64,000 bases of DNA. It comes from Thermoplasmata archaeon. Its GTDB lineage: Archaea > Thermoplasmatota > Thermoplasmata > UBA10834 > DTMW01. The stretch spans positions 1,899 through 65,898 of the forward strand of contig JAWCKK010000005.1 in the NCBI GenBank assembly GCA_038852105.1, given 5' to 3'. Shown one piece after another: positions 29,114-38,017 of this stretch. Below the pieces are notes generated by a model that was given only the letters and a program-made list of their open reading frames with translations, was not told the origin of the DNA and did no database searches. The translations under genes and the position numbers were made by a program. The number at the start of each line of letters is the position of its first letter. The first letter of the stretch is position 1.

Positions 29114-29368
29114 TCAAATTTTTCAATCAGATTTCATTGGTTGAGTTGGCGTTATGTTAGAGCTTCTATAAATAGCTTACTATCTTTGAAATTAATCGAA
29201 ATATTGAATGGCCAGATAAGTAAGAATCGTTCGAAACATGGGCGTGATTGAACTGTCGGCAATTCCTGCAAATTTTTGTGATTGCCTCTGAAAATCCATT
29301 AATTGAATTGATGTCAGAATTTACATCTACGAGTGTCGCAATCCCGAACGCAATTAGGGAGGCTCTCC

Positions 29369-30790
29369 ATGGCAAGAGGTAGACTCAGCATTCTATTCTC
29401 CGAAGAAATCGAACGCATCCATTCAATTTCTATTAGGATATTGGAAGAAATAGGAATAGTTGTTAAAAGCGAAAATGTTGCGAAGATGCTGCTCGATGCG
29501 GGAGCTATCAGATCTCCTAATGGGAAACGGATATTGATACCGGAGAGGATGGTAAAGGCAGCTTTGGCTAGCGTGCCCAAGTCAATCCTTCTTGCCGGAC
29601 GGAATGGCGTCAAGGACATGACTATCCCTTCGAACATACTCTATGCCGCGACGGGCGGAGAGGGGGTCTACCTGAAGAACCTGGTCAAGGGAACCACTCG
29701 ACCGACGTCGATTCAGGACGTGAGAGATGTCTCAAGAATCGTGGAGAGTCTCCCCCAGATAGACTTCTTATGGGGACTTGTCGGTGCGTTAGATGTCCCT
29801 GATCATCTAAAGACCACGATGGAAACAAAGACAGCCATTCAATATTGCAGCAAGCACTGGCAAGGAGGCAGCTTGAGCGCAGAGGAGGCAAAGAGAGACA
29901 TCGACCTAGCGGCAATAGTGGTCGGCGGCCACAAGGAACTAGCAAGGAGGCCGATCATCTCTGCCGTTGAATGCCCCCTTTCACCGTTGACTTTCGAGAA
30001 GGGACTGGTCGAAGCCCAGGTTACGTATGCCAAGGCGGGCATACCGGTCGTCGCAATGGTGGCTAATATGGCTGGCCTCACATCTCCAATCACGCTATCT
30101 GGAACTGTGACGCAGACCAATGCCGAGAATCTTGCTAGCCTGGTGATATCCCAGACCGCGAAGCCAGGATCGCCTTGGATTTACAGTAGCGATTCCGTCC
30201 CTGCGGACTTGAGGACCGGCTCGATTGATTATGGAGCGTTCGAGGCACCATTGATGAGAGCCGCCGCGGGAGAGATGGGCAGGCATTACGGATTTCCAGT
30301 CATGTGCGCGGGCTTGGGCATCGAGGAGACCTCGATTAGCCTCAGCAGCATCCGAGAAGGGGTGCCGTTCATGCTAAACGAGGCTTTGGTGCAGTCCGAC
30401 CTCGGCTCAGGATTCGGCGGGATAGACCAGGCGGCGGGTGCCGCGTTCGAGCAGATAATCGTGGATGCGTGGATTTGGGAGATTGCACGAGAGATCGCGA
30501 GGGAGTTCGATACCGACGAGGACGCAATAGCGTTCGACACAATACGCGAAGCTTCGGAGGACATGAATTTCCTGACGAAGAAGCACACGATGGCACGGTT
30601 CAGAAAGGAATCGCTGGCAACATCGAAACCCTCTGCCGCAATCACAGGAAGACAGGAAAGTGCTGAGCGCGGAGCGGTCGTCAAGATGGCGCAGAAAGAG
30701 GTCGAGAAGATACTTTCGAAAGAGCCGAAGATGGTCGTCCCGAAGGATATCGCGAAAGAAATGGACGAATACGTCTCAAGGATAAGATGA
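29369..30790 (+). CDS. MttB-superfamily (trimethylamine methyltransferase-like) methyltransferase, uninterrupted (non-Pyl type)
   Basis: Homologous along its full length to the five paralogs at 57.2-64.0 kb (e.g. the conserved GGHKELARRPIISAVECPLSPLTFEKG, AGIPVV and HGNxFLTxxHT blocks). No in-frame stop. I set the start at the internal Met (MARGRL). Confidence 0.8.
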   Translation: MARGRLSILFSEEIERIHSISIRILEEIGIVVKSENVAKMLLDAGAIRSPNGKRILIPERMVKAALASVPKSILLAGRNGVKDMTIPSNILYAATGGEGVYLKNLVKGTTRPTSIQDVRDVSRIVESLPQIDFLWGLVGALDVPDHLKTTMETKTAIQYCSKHWQGGSLSAEEAKRDIDLAAIVVGGHKELARRPIISAVECPLSPLTFEKGLVEAQVTYAKAGIPVVAMVANMAGLTSPITLSGTVTQTNAENLASLVISQTAKPGSPWIYSSDSVPADLRTGSIDYGAFEAPLMRAAAGEMGRHYGFPVMCAGLGIEETSISLSSIREGVPFMLNEALVQSDLGSGFGGIDQAAGAAFEQIIVDAWIWEIAREIAREFDTDEDAIAFDTIREASEDMNFLTKKHTMARFRKESLATSKPSAAITGRQESAERGAVVKMAQKEVEKILSKEPKMVVPKDIAKEMDEYVSRIR

Positions 30791-30914
30791 CCTATTCCTG
30801 GGTCTTGCCACTGACTGATGAAGATTATGGAACCTCCCATGGCAGTCAGGACGATATGTTTATTACCATACGCATCCGATACTTCCAGCAGTAATGCTCG
30901 GGAGGACACCCCAA

Positions 30915-31445
30915 ATGGCCGACATAAGGCAAAGAGTAGAGGAGGACATGGGGCTTCTGAAGAAGATTCAGAGCTTCATTCCCGGTTTCAGAGGATACAG
31001 GAGAAGAGAGGACCTTCGAGACGCCGACAGGATGCTGCGCATGCAGCTCGCCGACAAACTCGGAAAGCAAAGGAAAAGGCTCGAGGATTACAGGGGATTG
31101 ATTACGAAAACCTTCAACTCCAAACCGCTCGATATGATGGGCGGGATAATCTTCCAGATGAAGAAGGTTGAAGGTCAGGTCCTGCACGCAGATATGGGAT
31201 ACTCAGGATTTGTCGCGGATATTCAGATAAAGGAAGCCGAGTTGAACCGGCTCTACGAGTACGATGCCGCGATGATAGATGGCGTGACCTCTATCGCGGC
31301 GAGCATAGATTCGCTCGAGCCAGCGTTGGCCTCCCAGGACGACGCCAAGAGCGTTCTGATGCTCAATGAGATCAAGCAGAAGGTCAGCCAATTCGAGGAG
31401 ATATTCAACAAGAGGAAGATTGTCATAACGGGAACGGAGGTGTGA
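30915..31445 (+). CDS. Small coiled-coil protein (CC1); the first gene of the SPFH/zinc-ribbon operon and a paralog of the 36218 gene
   Basis: About 176 aa, predicted all-helical. It shares IPGFRGYRRREDLRDADRMLRM and LNRLYEYDAAMIDG blocks with the ORF at 36218 (IPDFRGYSRKEDLRDADRMIRM, LERLYEFDAKLLDI). There is a 3-nt gap to the next gene. Confidence 0.5.
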   Translation: MADIRQRVEEDMGLLKKIQSFIPGFRGYRRREDLRDADRMLRMQLADKLGKQRKRLEDYRGLITKTFNSKPLDMMGGIIFQMKKVEGQVLHADMGYSGFVADIQIKEAELNRLYEYDAAMIDGVTSIAASIDSLEPALASQDDAKSVLMLNEIKQKVSQFEEIFNKRKIVITGTEV

Positions 31446-31448
31446 TGA

Positions 31449-32552
31449 ATGAGCCTGATAGGCGCTGAGACGTTCAACTGGGAAGATGCCTACAAACGAA
31501 ACAACATCATGTGGAGAGTTCCCCGGAATATAAAGTTCAATGACAACATAGTCGTCAGGGAGGACGAGATGGCGGTGTTCTTCAGGGACGGCAAGGCCCT
31601 GGATTACATCGACCGGCCGGACAGGTATGCCCTTTCTTCCCTGAACGCACCGATCGTCGGGAAAATCGTGAAGTTCTTGTCCGGTGTGCAGCAGCAGGCA
31701 GAGGTCATATACATCCAGAAGAGGGTTTTCGACGGAAAGTTCGGCAGCAAGCAGCCTTATCAGTTCAGGGACAAGGAGTTCGGGATGGTCAATCTCCGGG
31801 TCTTCGGGGAGTTCCGATACAAGGTCGCTTCGCCGATGAACTTCGTCAACCAGTTCTGCGGTACCTTCAATTTCACCACGAGCGCGGAGGTCGAGGAGCG
31901 AATCAAGGAGCAGATGGTCATCCTCGTGTACGACGCGCTTGGGGACATGAAGAACGAGGGCATGGGCGTCGCGGACATCGCTGCGAACCTAACGAACATC
32001 GAGCAAGCTGTCCTTTCGAGATCGAAGGAGCACTTCGAGTTGTACGGCATCTCGATAGACAAGTTGTCCGGGCTCTATATCTCAATGCCAGAGGAGGTCC
32101 AGAAGGCGGTCGATACGCGCGCCTCGATGCAAATCCTTGGCGCGAACTACATGCAGTATCAGACTGGACAGGCGATGAGAGACGCCGCGGCAAACCCGTC
32201 CGGCGGAGCCGCGGGCGTCGGTGTCGGTGTCGGCGCCGGGATAGGCATGGGATATCAGATGATCGGTGCGATGCAGCAGCCCGCCGCGGCTCCGACGCAA
32301 ACCGCGGCCGCACCAGGGATAGCCTGTCCCAAATGCGGCACGGTCAACCCTGGCGGAGCGAAGTTCTGCTCGTCTTGCGGCTCGAAACTGACTGTCGATA
32401 TGACCAACTGCCCAAAGTGCGGGAAGCAGGTCCCGATGGGCAAGTTCTGTCCTGAGTGCGGCGCGCCGCTGGGGACGAAGAAGTGCTCGAAATGTGGCGC
32501 GGAAGTCCCCGCAGCGGCGAAGTTCTGCCCTGAGTGTGGAAAAGAGCCATGA
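31449..32552 (+). CDS. SPFH-like (Band_7_1 / YdjI-COG4260 family) protein with four C-terminal tandem zinc ribbons
   Basis: The N-terminal pattern FNWEDAY...IMWRVP...IVVREDEMAVFFRDGKALDYIDRPDRYALSSLNAPIV matches the characteristic N-terminus of the YdjI/Band_7_1 family. It is followed by a G/A-rich linker (GVGVGVGAG) and four CPxCG..KFC..CG repeats. A Shine-Dalgarno-like GGAGGTG precedes the ATG. Confidence 0.75.
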   Translation: MSLIGAETFNWEDAYKRNNIMWRVPRNIKFNDNIVVREDEMAVFFRDGKALDYIDRPDRYALSSLNAPIVGKIVKFLSGVQQQAEVIYIQKRVFDGKFGSKQPYQFRDKEFGMVNLRVFGEFRYKVASPMNFVNQFCGTFNFTTSAEVEERIKEQMVILVYDALGDMKNEGMGVADIAANLTNIEQAVLSRSKEHFELYGISIDKLSGLYISMPEEVQKAVDTRASMQILGANYMQYQTGQAMRDAAANPSGGAAGVGVGVGAGIGMGYQMIGAMQQPAAAPTQTAAAPGIACPKCGTVNPGGAKFCSSCGSKLTVDMTNCPKCGKQVPMGKFCPECGAPLGTKKCSKCGAEVPAAAKFCPECGKEP

Positions 32553-32592
32553 TTGATGATACGGAAATGATTGCATCATCGGAGGTATCGGT

Positions 32593-33336
32593 TTGGCGTC
32601 GGTCAAATGCGTGAAGTGCGGCGCAAGCGTCCAGTTCGACTCTGGGACGAAGTTCACAAAATGCCCCTATTGCAGTTCGCAGATATACATCGATAGATCG
32701 GGCGCGGGGTTCTATTACATCTTGACCTTCATGTCCGACCAGAACGGCGCGATAGGCATATTCAGGCGGTGGGCGGCGGGATCGACCAAGGCCAAAGATT
32801 TGGACAAGTTGGCGCAGATAGTCTCGATAAAGAAGCAATATTTCCCGGTATATCTTTTCAAGAGAGATAACCAGGGGGTCGAGCAGGTCTTCGTCGAGCC
32901 CGCGGGCTCAACGACCTTGCCGGGCCTTCACAGCCTCAAGGTCCCAGCGGGGGATCTGAAGATATTCGATGCGAGCTTCGATATCGGGGGCGCGGAGCTC
33001 ATCCAGCCCGATATCGAGATGCTTTCATACTTGAACAAGCTGCCTGGAAAGCCGAAGGAACAGGCGCTCGTCTATTTCCCCATCTGGACAATTATCTACG
33101 AATTCCAGGGAAAACAATACACGGCTGTCATCGACGGCGTCTCGGGAGAGGTATTCTCGGGCGAATTCCCCGTGCGCGCCTCGGCGCCGTACATGGTCGT
33201 CGCCGTGCTCGGTTTCCTCGCGTTCATCGGAGAAGGGTTGCTCGCGACGGCGAACATCCCGATTGCGGTTATCCTCATGGCCGTCACGGTGATAGCGATT
33301 TTCTTCATTGCGCTATTTGTCGCGAGGAGGATGTGA
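32593..33336 (+). CDS. Zinc-ribbon membrane protein, paralog A (N-terminal CxxC..CxxC, C-terminal two transmembrane helices)
   Basis: N-terminal VKCVKCGASV...CPYCSS, repeated Y-x-P-[VIF]-[YW] motifs (YFPVYLF, YFPIWTIIYEF, then TAVIDGVSGE), and hydrophobic C-terminal segments (MVVAVLGFLAFIG, IAVILMAVTVIAIFFIALFV). TTG start after GGAGGT. Confidence 0.6.
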   Translation: MASVKCVKCGASVQFDSGTKFTKCPYCSSQIYIDRSGAGFYYILTFMSDQNGAIGIFRRWAAGSTKAKDLDKLAQIVSIKKQYFPVYLFKRDNQGVEQVFVEPAGSTTLPGLHSLKVPAGDLKIFDASFDIGGAELIQPDIEMLSYLNKLPGKPKEQALVYFPIWTIIYEFQGKQYTAVIDGVSGEVFSGEFPVRASAPYMVVAVLGFLAFIGEGLLATANIPIAVILMAVTVIAIFFIALFVARRM

Positions 33337-33339
33337 TCC

Positions 33340-34338
33340 ATGCCGGACATATCAGTAGGCCTCAATTGCCCGACGTGCGGCGGAGCGATCCAGATATCCG
33401 AGGGAGACAACACCGTCATCTGTCAATACTGCAATTCGACTCTCTTCGTTGAGGGCGACCAGGGCGTCAACACCATTGCCTTCAAGAGCAAGTTCCAGCG
33501 AGAACACGCCATTGCGGCAACATTCGATTGGTGGAAGAGAGGGCTCAAGGCACGCGACCTGCCTAAGACCGGGAAGATATTGGAGGCGTATCCGATCTAC
33601 TTGCCCTTCTGGAGCGCGACCACGAGGGTCGCCGGCTGGATATGTGGTTACGAAGAGCGGAGGCACACCGATCAGCGCGGGAACGTGCGAGTCGAGAGGA
33701 TACCGAAAGAGGTGATGATCCTCCAGGACTTCGCCTTCTCGGAGATTGCCTGCGACCCGGGCGACATCGGGATAGCCCATCTCAGGAACTTTCAGGGTGA
33801 GACTACCTTCGAGGACTTCGAGATGATCCCGACCTTCGAATCGACCACGAGCAAGGATGACGCGCTCGCGCATGCGAGGGCGGACGCCATAAATCGCGCG
33901 AGGGCTGGCGCGCGCGTGCCAAATGTGACCTTCGAGCGCCTCCATGCGTTCCCGAAGCGCCTTTCGCTAATCTATTATCCTGTCTGGGTCGTGAGATACA
34001 GCTACCGCGACAGGATGTACATGGACACTGTTGACGGGGTGACGGGAACGATACTGTCCGGAAGAGCGCCGGGCGACCCGCTATATCAGAGCTTGGCGAT
34101 AACCGGGGGCACATCTATCGGAGGATTGATTGCCGCCGGTGGGATACTCGCGGGCCAGGCGGATTGGAGGATCGCTGCGGCAGGGGTCGTCGTCGGAATC
34201 ATAGTGTTGGCTGTGACGTATCTGTTCTTCAGGCACGGCTCGGAGATTACGCAGGGAGATTTCAAGGCGAAAAGGCCTTCGGCCAAAGAAACAATCGCGA
34301 GCATTCAGCAGATAGCGAACCAGCTGGGGAGGGTGTGA
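33340..34338 (+). CDS. Zinc-ribbon membrane protein, paralog B
   Basis: N-terminal CPTCGGAI...CQYCNS, the motifs YPIYLPFWSA and YYPVWVVRYSY then DTVDGVTGT, and a C-terminal hydrophobic stretch (GGLIAAGGILAG...AAGVVVGIIVLAVTYLFF). ATG after GGAGGATG. Confidence 0.6.
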   Translation: MPDISVGLNCPTCGGAIQISEGDNTVICQYCNSTLFVEGDQGVNTIAFKSKFQREHAIAATFDWWKRGLKARDLPKTGKILEAYPIYLPFWSATTRVAGWICGYEERRHTDQRGNVRVERIPKEVMILQDFAFSEIACDPGDIGIAHLRNFQGETTFEDFEMIPTFESTTSKDDALAHARADAINRARAGARVPNVTFERLHAFPKRLSLIYYPVWVVRYSYRDRMYMDTVDGVTGTILSGRAPGDPLYQSLAITGGTSIGGLIAAGGILAGQADWRIAAAGVVVGIIVLAVTYLFFRHGSEITQGDFKAKRPSAKETIASIQQIANQLGRV

Positions 34339-34340
34339 GC

Positions 34341-34928
34341 GTGAAGGTCATCCAGGTCAAATGCCCGAAGTGCAACGCCCCAATCGTTATGAAGCAGAAG
34401 GACAAGCTGTTCCTATGCAACCAGTGCAACACGCTGCATACGAGGGATGACGGCGTCGAGGTGATACCTTTCGAAATCGCGGAGTTCCATCCGAACATAC
34501 ACGGAGACGATGTCTATATACCGTTCTGGAAGATGAACGCGACCTTCGAGATCAGGTACAAGCGCTCGGAAGGGGGCTTGATATCCAAGTTGGCATCTTT
34601 CGTGAAGGGGAACTCGAATACCGGCAACATCGTGATCTACATCCCGGCGACCGATCTTGACACGGCAACGTTCAGAAGGCTCGTCTCGCTGTTCCTCTCC
34701 AATCCGCCCAGGTACAGCACCAGATTCAACTTCGGCGGCGTGAGGAACATGCCTTCCACGGTCACAAGAAGAGAAGCCGCCGAGCTTGCGGATTTCGCGG
34801 TCGTGACGATGGAAGCCGACCAACCTGGGGTCCTGCAGGCGTTGGACTATTCGCTAAAGATTAACGATTCGAAGATAGTGTACCTGCCGTTTGTAGTCAC
34901 GCCCGGCGGGCTGAACCCCGCACTGTAG
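34341..34928 (+). CDS. Zinc-ribbon protein, paralog C (no transmembrane segment)
   Basis: GTG start 3 nt after the previous stop, preceded by GGGGAGGGTG. N-terminal CPKCNAPI...CNQCN and the motifs YIPFWKM and YLPFVVTP. The ORF-track 5' extension (34164) is out of frame with paralog B and I rejected it. Confidence 0.55.
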   Translation: MKVIQVKCPKCNAPIVMKQKDKLFLCNQCNTLHTRDDGVEVIPFEIAEFHPNIHGDDVYIPFWKMNATFEIRYKRSEGGLISKLASFVKGNSNTGNIVIYIPATDLDTATFRRLVSLFLSNPPRYSTRFNFGGVRNMPSTVTRREAAELADFAVVTMEADQPGVLQALDYSLKINDSKIVYLPFVVTPGGLNPAL

Positions 34929-34995
34929 AAGCTTCAGCATTCTCTTACGCAAACCCTTTCCGATTACTTCCCTGATTTCTGGATTCAATCGAGCA

Positions 34996-35003
34996 TTTTA
35001 TAT
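34996..35003 (+). promoter_or_regulatory. Putative archaeal TATA box (TTTTATAT) for the 35029 transcription unit
   Basis: TTTTATAT lies about 26-33 nt upstream of the ATG at 35029, consistent with a leaderless transcript. Confidence 0.3.
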
Positions 35004-35028
35004 CAGGACTGGTTCTATCCTCGGCTCG

Positions 35029-35649
35029 ATGCAGGCGGAGACGAAAAGAGCAGGATTAATACCGCTCATTCTTCTCAGGGGCAGGACGCTTCTTTTCAAG
35101 GAATATTCGAAAAAAGCGCTCAGCGAACTCTCAAAGGACTTGAGACGCAAGAATTTCGAGAAGATATACATCATGGACTTGGACGGCCTGGAAAGGAATA
35201 GGCCCCAGTTGGACATCGTCCAGCGATTATCGGACGATTTTGGGATCTTGTACGAAGGAGGACCGCGGAGGGGGGCTCACATCATCGACTTCATCATGGC
35301 TGGGGCTGAATTGGCCTACATGAATACGGCCACCCTTGAATCTCTCGATGAGCTGGAAATCGCGTTGTCGTACACCGATAATGTCGGCCTGAAGGTTGAC
35401 TGGAATCGGGGCATGATCGGCGATGATTTCAAGGATAAGACGTTGCAGGGCGCAGTGCAGGAATGCATGGGACTAGGCATCAGGGATTTCGTCATTCCCG
35501 TAGAGGTGATGCCTCAGCTAAGAAGCATGCGCTCCCTTCCGAACATCGTGCTGCGGGCAATCGCCGACCGCCCAGGTGATGAGAGAGCGCGCGACATCGA
35601 CGCGGACTCGATAATCGTCAATTACGAGTTGATAAGAGATGGCAATTGA
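35029..35649 (+). CDS. HisA/HisF-family (beta/alpha)8-barrel-like protein
   Basis: LIPLILLRG and IYIMDLDGLERNRPQLDIVQRL...EGGPRRGAHIIDFIMAGAE parallel the HisA blocks (IPAIDL..G, LHLVDLDGA, GGGIR). At 206 aa it is shorter than canonical HisA. Confidence 0.4.
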   Translation: MQAETKRAGLIPLILLRGRTLLFKEYSKKALSELSKDLRRKNFEKIYIMDLDGLERNRPQLDIVQRLSDDFGILYEGGPRRGAHIIDFIMAGAELAYMNTATLESLDELEIALSYTDNVGLKVDWNRGMIGDDFKDKTLQGAVQECMGLGIRDFVIPVEVMPQLRSMRSLPNIVLRAIADRPGDERARDIDADSIIVNYELIRDGN

Positions 35650-36127
35650 TATCGATAAAGAACTCAGAAAATGCCTCGCGGCGCTCTTTCGCCAGAAGGG
35701 GAAGGATATCATGACCGAGCGCGAGTTCGTGTACGCTGCCTCGATGGACTTGCGTTGGTTCGCTCCCAAGGAAGCACAAACGTTGCTCGAAATCTCATTG
35801 AAGTGCGGCCTATTAAGACTCTCCAACGGCACGCTGAGTCCGTCGTTCGAGATCTCGGACGATATGATAGAACTTGATTATAAGCCCTCGAGGGAAATCA
35901 TAATCGGGGAACAAAAGGGAGACGAGCACGATCCATTTATGGCTCTTGTGGACAAGATATCGACAAGCTCGGGGCTTCAGAAAAGGCAGGTCATCGCAGG
36001 GATAAATAAGGTGCGCGAGAAAATGCCCGTAGATATCGAAGTCGCCGCCCTCATTTTCGCCAGAAATCTCGGGATCGACATTTCGATGGACATCAAGAGC
36101 GTCAGAGACACGCTGATGGCGAGATAG
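35639..36127 (+). CDS. Conserved hypothetical protein (archaeal DUF-like), overlapping the upstream gene by 11 nt
   Basis: 162-aa ORF in operon arrangement with 35029. I recognised no motif. Confidence 0.4.
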   Translation: MAIDIDKELRKCLAALFRQKGKDIMTEREFVYAASMDLRWFAPKEAQTLLEISLKCGLLRLSNGTLSPSFEISDDMIELDYKPSREIIIGEQKGDEHDPFMALVDKISTSSGLQKRQVIAGINKVREKMPVDIEVAALIFARNLGIDISMDIKSVRDTLMAR

Positions 36128-36217
36128 ATTTCCTCCTCCTACTATTTCACCAAGACATTTATTAGCTCAATTAGGAATCACTAGTCCGTTCTCTTGAATC
36201 GATTGTTGGGAAGTAAA

Positions 36218-36742
36218 ATGGCAGAGTTCGAGGAGGAGAGAGAAGAGCGACATCCTCTAAAGAGGGTGCAGGCATACATACCAGACTTCCGAGGATACTC
36301 TCGGAAGGAAGACCTAAGAGATGCCGATAGGATGATAAGGATGATGTTATCGCAAAAACTAATGTTGGCTAGAAGGAACATTGAGGATTCCATGGGAAAG
36401 CTGGAAGAGGCTTTGCTGTACGAGGACGTCGATTCCCTCACTTCCCTGTTGAATATGCTGAAGAGGATCGAATCGGAAATCGCATATGCGGATTCCGGCC
36501 TTTCGTGGCTTGCGAGCGACATAAGCCTTGGGGAGGAGGAACTGGAGAGACTGTACGAATTTGACGCTAAACTATTGGACATCGCTACGCTCATTCTGAA
36601 GAAAACCGAGGAGACGAAGACGGCGTCCTCGGCGGGCAACAGGCCTGTAATAAAATCGAGCTTCATCGATCTCCGCACGAAACTGACAGTGCTAGAGGAC
36701 ACCTATCGAAAGAGAATGCTATCGCTCAATAAGATCGGATAA
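36218..36742 (+). CDS. Small coiled-coil protein (CC2), paralog of the 30915 gene
   Basis: Shares the N-terminal and central blocks with CC1. A TTTATTAG element lies about 55 nt upstream, a similar arrangement to CC1. Confidence 0.5.
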   Translation: MAEFEEEREERHPLKRVQAYIPDFRGYSRKEDLRDADRMIRMMLSQKLMLARRNIEDSMGKLEEALLYEDVDSLTSLLNMLKRIESEIAYADSGLSWLASDISLGEEELERLYEFDAKLLDIATLILKKTEETKTASSAGNRPVIKSSFIDLRTKLTVLEDTYRKRMLSLNKIG

Positions 36743-36763: not shown

Positions 36764-38017
36764 TCACCGGTCAATCGGAATCGGGATATCGTTGCTCACC
36801 TTGGCTCGCAAAATCTCGTTTGAAATCATGGCTTTATTGAAATAATATCTGAATAGCACGGGCGCCAGCGCTGTCGAGATGAATGCCATCAGAACGAGCG
36901 CGGAGAATATATCCTGACCTATGAGCCCACTTTCGAGCGCGATCTTTGCGAATACGAGCTCTATCACTCCTTTCCCCATCATGATCGAGCCGATTGCAAT
37001 TGATTCGTTCTTCTTGACACCGATGAGTCTTGCTGAGATAGCGCTGCCCAATAGCTTCCCGGGTATGGCAATCAGCAATAATAGTGCAAATAAGAGGATT
37101 GAGGACGATGAGGTGAATAATAGAGCATTGAAATCTACCGTAAAACCGATCAGAACGAAGAAGATTGGCGCAAGGAATCCCAAGGTGATGCCTGATAGAA
37201 TATCCTCCACTCGCGCCCATACTTTCAGCCTGCTTCCGCTTTCCCTGAGCATCATACCTGCGATGAACGCGCCGATGAAATCTGGAAGACCGGCGAATCT
37301 CGCAAGGACCGCGAAGGCGATGGCAAATCCTATTGCGATTGCGAACGCCGCTTCCCCCGTGCGCATCCATATCAGAATCCGATAAAGCTGGGGGATGATG
37401 TAATGGCTGACCAGGAATACCAAAACAAAGAATAGCGCAAACCCGAGAAAGAGAACGAAAGCCTTCTCGGAACTCTGACCGTCGATTGGCCCTGCAACCA
37501 CGATTGCCATCGCGATCAGAAGCGATACATCCGTCATCATCGCCGCGCTGATGATTCTGCTGCTCGTCTCGGTTTCGAGCACCTCCATATCCTTCAATAT
37601 TCTTATCGTCACCGGGAGTGCCGTAACGGACATCGCTATCGCAAGAAACAGCACTGCATTTCTTTCAAGGCCGAATGCGATTCCGAGTAGTATCCCGCAG
37701 ACTGCAGGTATGATGACACCGCCGATGGTGACAACTAGCCCGATTCGATAGGATGCTACAATCCTCTTGAAAGAGAACTCGAGACCGATGTACAATAGAA
37801 GCAGTAGTATTCCGAGGTCGGCCAAATTCCTAATGAACTCATCGACGTACATCGAACGGAGCTCGCCGATTACGCTTCCGAGAATGAACGGACCGAGAAT
37901 AATTCCTGCGAGAAGTTCACCCACGATTGATGGCTGATTTATGCGCGAAACCAGCTCGCCCATCGCCTTCGCGAACGCTATTATCAGTAGGATGTATACA
38001 AGCACTGAGATGTCCAT
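36764..38017 (-). CDS. Cation:proton antiporter (CPA2 / Na+-H+ exchanger family)
   Basis: 12-TM profile. The N-terminus MDISVLVYILLIIAFAKAMGELVSRINQPSIVGELLAGIILGP is classic KefB/NapA-like. Confidence 0.85.
   Translation of the reverse strand: MDISVLVYILLIIAFAKAMGELVSRINQPSIVGELLAGIILGPFILGSVIGELRSMYVDEFIRNLADLGILLLLLYIGLEFSFKRIVASYRIGLVVTIGGVIIPAVCGILLGIAFGLERNAVLFLAIAMSVTALPVTIRILKDMEVLETETSSRIISAAMMTDVSLLIAMAIVVAGPIDGQSSEKAFVLFLGFALFFVLVFLVSHYIIPQLYRILIWMRTGEAAFAIAIGFAIAFAVLARFAGLPDFIGAFIAGMMLRESGSRLKVWARVEDILSGITLGFLAPIFFVLIGFTVDFNALLFTSSSSILLFALLLLIAIPGKLLGSAISARLIGVKKNESIAIGSIMMGKGVIELVFAKIALESGLIGQDIFSALVLMAFISTALAPVLFRYYFNKAMISNEILRAKVSNDIPIPIDR

Follow-up and report, generated by a model that had tools for sequence, protein, structure and literature searches.

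An archaeal operon for a YdjI/SamI-type SPFH protein with YdjG-related zinc-ribbon proteins and an uncharacterised helical-bundle partner but no PspA

Which membrane system is encoded by an archaeal operon in which an SPFH gene is packed together with zinc-ribbon genes and the gene of a small helical protein? Such a locus is present in a 64,000-nucleotide (nt) stretch of a Thermoplasmata archaeon (GenBank assembly GCA_038852105.1, contig JAWCKK010000005.1, positions 1,899 to 65,898), hereafter the window, where five co-directional genes, CC1-SPFH-ZR1-ZR2-ZR3, occupy positions 30915-34928 of the + strand (Table 1). An earlier note, made from the sequence alone, had compared this operon with the PspA-YdjGHI membrane-stress module of Bacillus subtilis and had proposed that CC1 and a second copy of it, CC2, are coiled-coil proteins resembling PspA or ESCRT-III. 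We find that the module consists of two known families, YdjI and a triplicated YdjG, and of an uncharacterised and widespread partner, and that it lacks PspA and YdjH.

Among soluble SPFH scaffolds of the YdjI type, only that of the Bacillus PspA-SamGHI system has been studied, and its interpretation has so far centred on the link to PspA. The soluble YdjI (SamI) of B. subtilis depends on YdjG and YdjH (SamG and SamH) for its membrane localisation, and PspA is recruited by YdjI (PMC8581546; 10.64898/2026.02.06.704340). The loss of SamI unbalances SamG-SamH signalling, and PspA is dispensable for that phenotype (10.64898/2026.02.06.704340). Because the phenotype is independent of PspA, the SPFH/anchor core has an output of its own. 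The archaeal homologs of SamI and SamG described here form a strongly conserved module without PspA and without SamH, which separates the SPFH/anchor core from PspA and gives a name to zinc-ribbon proteins that had counted as unknown.

The SPFH scaffold and its zinc-ribbon companions

The coordinates and start contexts confirm that the five genes are tightly packed and provided with Shine-Dalgarno sequences of the GGAGG type, as the earlier note had stated: the intergenic gaps measure 3, 40, 3 and 2 nt, and GGAGG or GGGAGG is found 5-12 nt ahead of all five starts. For the comparison with Bacillus, the ydjG forward primer given in PMC8581546 led to the pspA-ydjG-ydjH-ydjI loci of four Bacillus species, and the genes of Bacillus stercoris were compared with those of the window.

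The product of the second gene matches Pfam Band_7_1 (PF13421) over profile positions 3-210 of 211 (E 2e-34, 119.5 bits at a cut-off of 24), and BLASTP aligns it with Bacillus YdjI from end to end (E 5e-17), including the SPFH domain, the Gly/Ala/Met-rich linker and the terminal ribbon. By homology, it is a YdjI/SamI-type Band_7_1 protein, as had been suggested. The four tandem zinc ribbons that had been assigned to its tail are, however, only three: there are six CxxC knuckles at residues 293-363, and the protein also matches Pfam DZR and, in 3 stretches, Zn_Ribbon_1. A scan for hydrophobic segments found none in the SPFH protein, which hence has no membrane anchor of its own.

The zinc-ribbon proteins, which had matched nothing that could be named, were resolved by profile comparison. 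With hhalign, the ZR2 family aligned with YdjG at 96-97% probability (E 3.4e-9 to 5.9e-11) from the ribbon past the YIPFW motif to a strand-turn, LPVWxVxYxY...G.TG, that directly precedes the membrane helix, and the ZR1 family aligned with YdjG over 182 columns (95.8%, E 6.7e-9). Both alignments extend well past the ribbon, and the YpeB/PepSY-like body that follows the ribbon is homologous to that of YdjG. ZR3 aligned with YdjG at 72.6% (E 3e-5) in the ribbon only, as it did with ZR2 (38-43 columns in the two comparisons). When YdjG was used as a phmmer query against all open reading frames (ORFs) of the window, ZR2 (8.7e-8) and ZR1 (7.9e-7) were returned, followed by ZR3, which was not significant. 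On these alignments, we firmly assign ZR1 and ZR2 as YdjG/SamG homologs, and ZR3 as a relative through its ribbon. Because Pfam recognises the ribbon alone even in YdjG itself, it is understandable that the family could not be named before.

The three proteins had also been described as mutual paralogs. This holds for ZR1 and ZR2, whose families align over 229 columns (E 1.6e-17), and it holds for ZR3 only in the ribbon region, where ZR3 and the ZR2 family share 43 columns (E 1.6e-7) comprising the N-terminal ribbon and a GVxxIPF stretch. By eye, the YIPFW motif is common to ZR3 and its relatives. Each of the three proteins carries one N-terminal C4 ribbon of the CxxCG-x(11-13)-CxxC type, and YdjG carries two. 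Hydrophobic C-terminal segments are present in ZR1 (residues 194-247) and in ZR2 (helices 247-271 and 276-300), and the same scan found none in ZR3, CC1 or CC2, which bears out the earlier distinction between two paralogs with C-terminal transmembrane (TM) helices and a soluble third.

The CC family and its genomic company

The profile and structure comparisons did not support a relationship of CC1 or CC2 to PspA or ESCRT-III. Neither protein matches Pfam PspA_IM30 (PF04012) or Snf7 (PF03357) at E<=1, and a Pfam scan of 69 diverse members of the CC family returned no consistent family and did not include PspA_IM30 or Snf7 among the most-matched ones. PspAA was matched weakly (E 0.03) by 2 of these 69 members and was rejected, since it is an alpha/beta domain. 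The hhalign probability of the CC family profile against Bacillus PspA is 0.2%, and two profile searches of all sequences in the PDB returned designed coiled coils only, at non-significant E-values, and no PspA, Vipp1 or ESCRT-III. The AlphaFold (AF2) model of CC1 (pLDDT 88.7, pTM 0.85) is a compact five-helix bundle with helices of 20-37 residues (2-21, 31-62, 70-90, 103-139 and 143-172), and it lacks a long hairpin of alpha1 and alpha2 along which further helices would pack. A Foldseek search with this model found nothing at E<=1e-3, and PspA, Vipp1 and ESCRT-III were not among the matches listed. By sequence comparison and by its predicted fold, CC1 is not PspA/ESCRT-III-like, and the description as a coiled coil gives way to that of a compact helical bundle.

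CC2 is a paralog of CC1 with 33-35% identity, and one family profile hits both (6.5e-63 for CC1 and 1.2e-44 for CC2); the second copy 1.3 kb downstream, behind a similar TTTATTA element at 36158, is thus as had been described. For CC2, we favour a start at the ATG at 36218 over one at the TTG at 36194, since the ATG lines up with the N-terminus of CC1 and leaves a longer distance to the TATA-like element upstream. CC2 departs from the family at three nearly invariant loop positions, with the substitutions G24D, Y96L and G98W. The closest cluster representatives of CC2 have the same GYSW variant.

When 1.84 billion cluster representatives were searched with the family profile, at least 1385 clusters of CC proteins at 50% identity were hit (E<=1e-3), with 742 remaining at E<=1e-10. 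Nearly all members are stand-alone proteins of ~175 amino acids (aa), and neither a Pfam entry nor a functional name exists for the family. Members named so far come from Firmicutes, Armatimonadetes and Caldilineaceae metagenome-assembled genomes (MAGs), from Methanomassiliicoccales and from Methanocella. The closest annotated relative is NCBIfam NF047596 (LIMLP_15305 of Leptospira), likewise of ~175 aa, to which both CC1 (E 7e-10, 39.1 bits, residues 8-170 against 11-172 of 175) and CC2 (E 1.7e-12, 47.6 bits) align in full length. Because these scores are significant over the full length yet far under the equivalog cut-off of 210, we place CC1 and CC2 in the same superfamily and do not regard them as equivalogs. 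LIMLP_15305 itself has been listed as a gene flanking an sRNA (PMC7567364). In the literature on LIMLP_15305, on Band_7_1/PF13421/COG4260 and on SPFH proteins with zinc ribbons, no description of a CC-SPFH pair was found; the coverage was incomplete, and absence is unproven.

The family shares the motif IPGFxGY..E..R..D...R / GYxG / L...Y..D / R167. The conserved positions are polar and mostly located in loops (IPGFxGY, E32, R35, D38, R42, the GYxG loop, L110, Y114, D117 and R167), and from the helix topology they would cluster at one pole of the bundle. Because the invariant residues are found in loops (PGFxGY, GYxG), they point to a specific binding site rather than to a polymerising coiled coil. 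Rare fusions join the CC domain to Band_7_1, to a zinc ribbon or to DUF4178. In two proteins, DUF4178 follows at the C-terminus (P0320, E 1.7e-23; P0323, E 2.3e-16); this domain has been tied to PspA-CesT/Tir and band-7 polyamine operons (PMC11237479).

In nine annotated contigs, CC is followed by Band_7_1 without an intervening gene, and in most of them the gap is 0-5 nt. These contigs belong to Thermoplasmata (L001, L007 and L008), Methanomassiliicoccales (L010), Methanocella (L011 and L014), a further archaeon (L013), a Firmicutes MAG (L012) and Caldilineaceae (L009). The entire five-gene module, with the same order and protein sizes, recurs in the three Thermoplasmata contigs and in Methanocella L011, and it is found with a disrupted SPFH gene in L014; ZR3 is the conserved fifth gene in all five. 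Because the same genes stand in the same order between different flanks in the first four of these contigs, that is, in four different contexts, the cluster is more than a chance association. Between the window and Methanocella, identities are 43% for CC, 71% for SPFH (ortholog at L011 2000-3070), 53% for ZR1, 51% for ZR2 and 39% for ZR3. Within Thermoplasmata, SPFH identities are 73-76%. Because the SPFH value between Thermoplasmata and Methanocella is nearly at the level seen within the class, the scaffold is either under very strong constraint or the module has been transferred laterally between classes.

A metagenome sample of 80 loci was collected with an alignment of the bacterial-type subfamily, and 59 of these loci had enough downstream sequence to be evaluated. 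An SPFH ORF follows CC immediately in 59/59. A YdjG-like ORF was found just upstream of CC in 11 metagenome loci and in L013, so that the order of the three families differs between loci in which all of them occur. In 12 metagenome loci (L031, L044, L054 and L073 among them) and in the Caldilineaceae contig (L009, 6380-6931), the gene just upstream of the CC-SPFH pair encodes a different ribbon protein of ~175 aa with an N-terminal TM hairpin, a winged-helix/PCI-like middle part and a C-terminal zinc ribbon of the same type (CPNCGG..CPYCGSE). This protein seems to be a membrane anchor used in place of the YdjG-like proteins. The number of SPFH ribbons and the number of YdjG-like genes showed no clean relation across loci. 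The constant core is therefore CC and Band_7_1, with a ribbon-bearing membrane anchor as a frequent third element and with variable gene order. The gene neighbourhood has proven strongly conserved, as the proposal of a genuine module had demanded, and the notion of a specifically archaeal arrangement has to be given up, since the CC-SPFH pair is widespread among bacteria as well.

Neither PspA nor YdjH was detected in the fetched loci other than those of Bacillus (YdjH at E<=1e-3), in searches with single-sequence profiles of limited sensitivity. The same holds for the window, where counterparts of PspA and of YdjH/TPM were not found (for YdjH by phmmer of the Bacillus protein against the six-frame ORFs, a single-sequence query of limited reach).

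Some neighbours are restricted to particular lineages. Immediately 3′ of the five-gene module, L001 (14123-15727) and L008 (14123-15688) carry an NfeD-Band_7 pair of the stomatin type, so that two SPFH systems stand side by side. In Methanocella (L011 and L014), an SDH_protease/NfeD1b gene is located ~2.5 kb away on the opposite strand. One high-GC lineage (L018, L021, L032, L039 and about 12 others) has the gene of a single-domain response-regulator receiver (Pfam Response_reg, 6.5e-30) directly upstream of CC-SPFH, which hints at phosphorelay control of the pair in that lineage. Four loci (L057, L065, L066 and L078) encode, right after SPFH, a ~115-aa membrane protein with about four hydrophobic segments by eye and no Pfam family; they belong to a lineage with a single YdjG-like gene upstream of CC.

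A membrane assembly around the SPFH scaffold and the alternatives

Compared with the B. subtilis pspA-ydjGHI (pspA-samGHI) operon, the resemblance noted earlier stands for the YdjI and YdjG homologs and fails for PspA and YdjH. Both operons share a soluble SPFH protein of the Band_7_1 family, whose low-complexity linker leads to a ribbon at the C-terminus; both encode membrane proteins with an N-terminal C4 ribbon, a YpeB-like body and C-terminal TM helices; and in both, the first gene encodes a small, soluble, helical protein. In contrast to Bacillus, this first protein is an unrelated five-helix bundle instead of PspA, YdjH/TPM is absent, YdjG is represented by three diverged paralogs that have one ribbon each instead of two and of which one lacks a TM helix, and the ribbons of the SPFH protein number three instead of one. 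The genes run partner-SPFH-anchors here and partner-anchors-SPFH in B. subtilis.

Other systems resemble the operon less closely. Stomatin-NfeD and HflK/C-type operons also encode an SPFH scaffold that acts at the membrane together with a dedicated small partner, but those SPFH proteins are self-anchored members of PF01145 and come without zinc ribbons or YdjG-like anchors, and NfeD is a beta-barrel/TM protein, unlike the helical bundle of CC. The archaeal 'Meth_adaptin' ESCRT-like loci likewise link SPFH and zinc ribbon by genomic context to membrane-remodelling machinery (PMC11188069), but they are defined by genes for a Vps4-like ATPase, ESCRT-III and adaptin appendages, none of which is found here.

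On balance, the operon probably, though by no means surely, encodes an assembly on the cytoplasmic face of the membrane around a soluble YdjI/SamI-type SPFH scaffold. The topology, the contacts and the stress role in the following model are predictions. ZR1 and ZR2 would be held in the membrane by C-terminal helical hairpins, as tail-anchored proteins, with their zinc ribbon and YpeB/PepSY-like domains facing the cytoplasm, and ZR3, which has no membrane helix, would be a soluble subunit of a heteromeric anchor formed with them. Together, the three proteins may serve as the membrane receptor that recruits the TM-less SPFH oligomer. The SPFH protein would oligomerise through its SPFH domain, and the flexible Gly/Ala/Met-rich linker with the three ribbons is a likely tether to partners. 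CC1, with its conserved polar surface, would be an obligate cytosolic partner of SPFH that is probably translationally coupled to it. Located in the operon slot of PspA, it may regulate how the scaffold assembles, or it may be a client or effector that the scaffold delivers to the membrane. If the analogy with SamGHI-PspA holds, the system would serve to monitor the membrane, or to stabilise it, when the envelope is under stress.

Several points weigh against this assembly. The relation of ZR3 to YdjG is confined to the ribbon. YdjH/TPM, which in Bacillus two-hybrid data is the direct anchor of YdjI and PspA, is missing, so the logic of recruitment may differ. Tethering through ribbons cannot be universal, because zinc ribbons are missing from 16 of the 49 complete SPFH proteins that are linked to CC in the metagenome sample. 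The loci of that sample were selected by a single peptide pattern (GY[SAT]G[FL]FD..) and are biased to one subfamily, which is part of the CC family. CC2 is a family member that does not adjoin an SPFH gene, and the match of the CC fold to generic helical bundles only leaves the activity of CC unconstrained.

Which part CC1 plays is the point on which a competing account differs. CC could be dedicated to the Band_7_1 scaffold, either as an aid to its assembly or as its negative regulator, in the way that NfeD is to stomatin, and it would cap or chaperone SPFH oligomers or their ribbon tails, with the output coming from the SPFH/YdjG-like complex; we regard this as possible, though rather unlikely. 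It would agree with the invariant one-to-one adjacency and the short gaps, which are consistent with translational coupling, with the far lower conservation of CC than of SPFH between Thermoplasmata and Methanocella, with the CC-Band_7_1 and zinc ribbon-CC fusion proteins and with the PspA-independent output of the Bacillus SPFH/anchor core (10.64898/2026.02.06.704340). However, the orphan CC2 and the CC-DUF4178 fusions suggest that CC can act away from an adjacent SPFH gene, and sequence data alone cannot tell a regulator from an effector. Very unlikely, in our estimate, is that CC1 and CC2 are highly diverged PspA/ESCRT-III proteins that polymerise on the membrane and remodel or seal it, tethered by SPFH and YdjG-like proteins as in Bacillus. 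CC1 does come first among genes for homologs of YdjI and YdjG, like pspA in pspA-ydjGHI, and it is small, soluble and all-helical, but the family, hhalign and PDB profile searches are empty of such a signal, the model is a compact bundle without an extended hairpin and without a Foldseek match at the threshold used, and the invariant loop residues form a pattern like that of a binding site.

Less probable still is an antiviral or abortive-infection system, in which an SPFH/zinc-ribbon sensor would release a membrane-disrupting CC bundle. The ZR3 ribbon weakly matches PADLOC HEC-08 (E 1.9e-5), but CC, SPFH, ZR1 and ZR2 yielded ribbon-level noise at most against PADLOC and no meaningful match against PHROG, and four- and five-helix bundles resemble each other generically. 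We rate this account low because PADLOC support is missing and because the module is conserved vertically, at 50-76% identity across many Thermoplasmata, among housekeeping genes and with no mobile-element context, rather than being patchy or island-borne.

Returning to the assembly around the SPFH scaffold, we propose tentatively, as an unlikely extension of it, that CC is an unrecognised, ancient and widespread SPFH-dependent membrane effector and a functional alternative to PspA/ESCRT-III, in which case Band_7_1 proteins would be general adaptors that carry either PspA or a CC bundle in bacteria and archaea. For those who study SPFH proteins or PspA, the practical consequence is that YdjI-type scaffolds are usually paired with a CC bundle protein and not with PspA, which offers, in the CC family, a testable candidate for the cargo or the control element of Band_7_1 scaffolds in most organisms.

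Further features of the window

Table 1. Features at and around the SPFH operon, in positions of the window.
Feature	Coordinates	Strand	Remarks
MttB-family methyltransferase homolog	29333..30790	+	Pfam MTTB 2.3e-66; uninterrupted 485-aa ORF, ends 125 nt before CC1
TTTATTA, candidate archaeal TATA box	30859..30865	+	56 nt 5′ of the CC1 ATG; putative promoter function
CC1, soluble five-helix-bundle protein of an unnamed family	30915..31445	+	176 aa, ATG start
SPFH, Band_7_1/YdjI (SamI) type; no TM helix, Gly/Ala/Met-rich linker, three C-terminal C4 zinc ribbons	31449..32552	+	367 aa, ATG start
ZR1, YdjG/SamG homolog; N-terminal C4 zinc ribbon, YpeB/PepSY-like body, predicted C-terminal TM hairpin	32593..33336	+	247 aa, TTG start
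ZR2, YdjG/SamG homolog; zinc ribbon, two helix-plus-beta-sheet (PepSY/YpeB-like) modules, predicted membrane helices, C-terminal helix	33340..34338	+	332 aa, ATG start
ZR3, soluble TM-less member of the trio; N-terminal zinc ribbon, YIPFW and YLPF motifs	34341..34928	+	195 aa, GTG start
HisA/HisF-like barrel, very diverged	35029..35649	+	Pfam His_biosynth E 1.4e-5, just above the cut-off
DUF2240 protein	35639..36127	+	Pfam E 3.4e-34; 11-nt overlap with the HisA/HisF-like gene
TTTATTA	36158..36164	+	60 nt 5′ of the CC2 ATG
CC2, CC1 paralog without adjacent SPFH gene	36218..36742	+	174 aa; most likely start ATG 36218
Membrane protein, convergent with CC2	36764..38017	-	417 aa, equal in length to the Na_H_Exchanger (PF00999) protein of L007

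On their + strand, the 64 kb contain the TTTATTA heptamer just two times, at 30859 and 36158, which makes separate archaeal TATA-type promoters for CC1 and CC2 plausible. The two genes between the operon and CC2, encoding the HisA/HisF-like and DUF2240 proteins (35029-36127), are unrelated to the module. A 100-nt spacer separates the end of the operon from the first of them, and because a TTTATATC element is found ~30 nt ahead of the HisA/HisF-like gene, the pair is taken as a transcription unit apart from the SPFH operon. In the contig L007, a 183-aa gene beside a Na+/H+ exchanger gene was considered as conserved context of CC2 and rejected, as it encodes an unrelated membrane protein.

The other flanking genes in the window encode a thermosome, the MttB-like protein and PAN, which agrees with a Thermoplasmata origin. 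No amber codon interrupts the frame of the MttB homolog, so that it presumably belongs to the members of its family without pyrrolysine. A Thermoplasmata MAG encodes a protein with 100% identity to ZR2.

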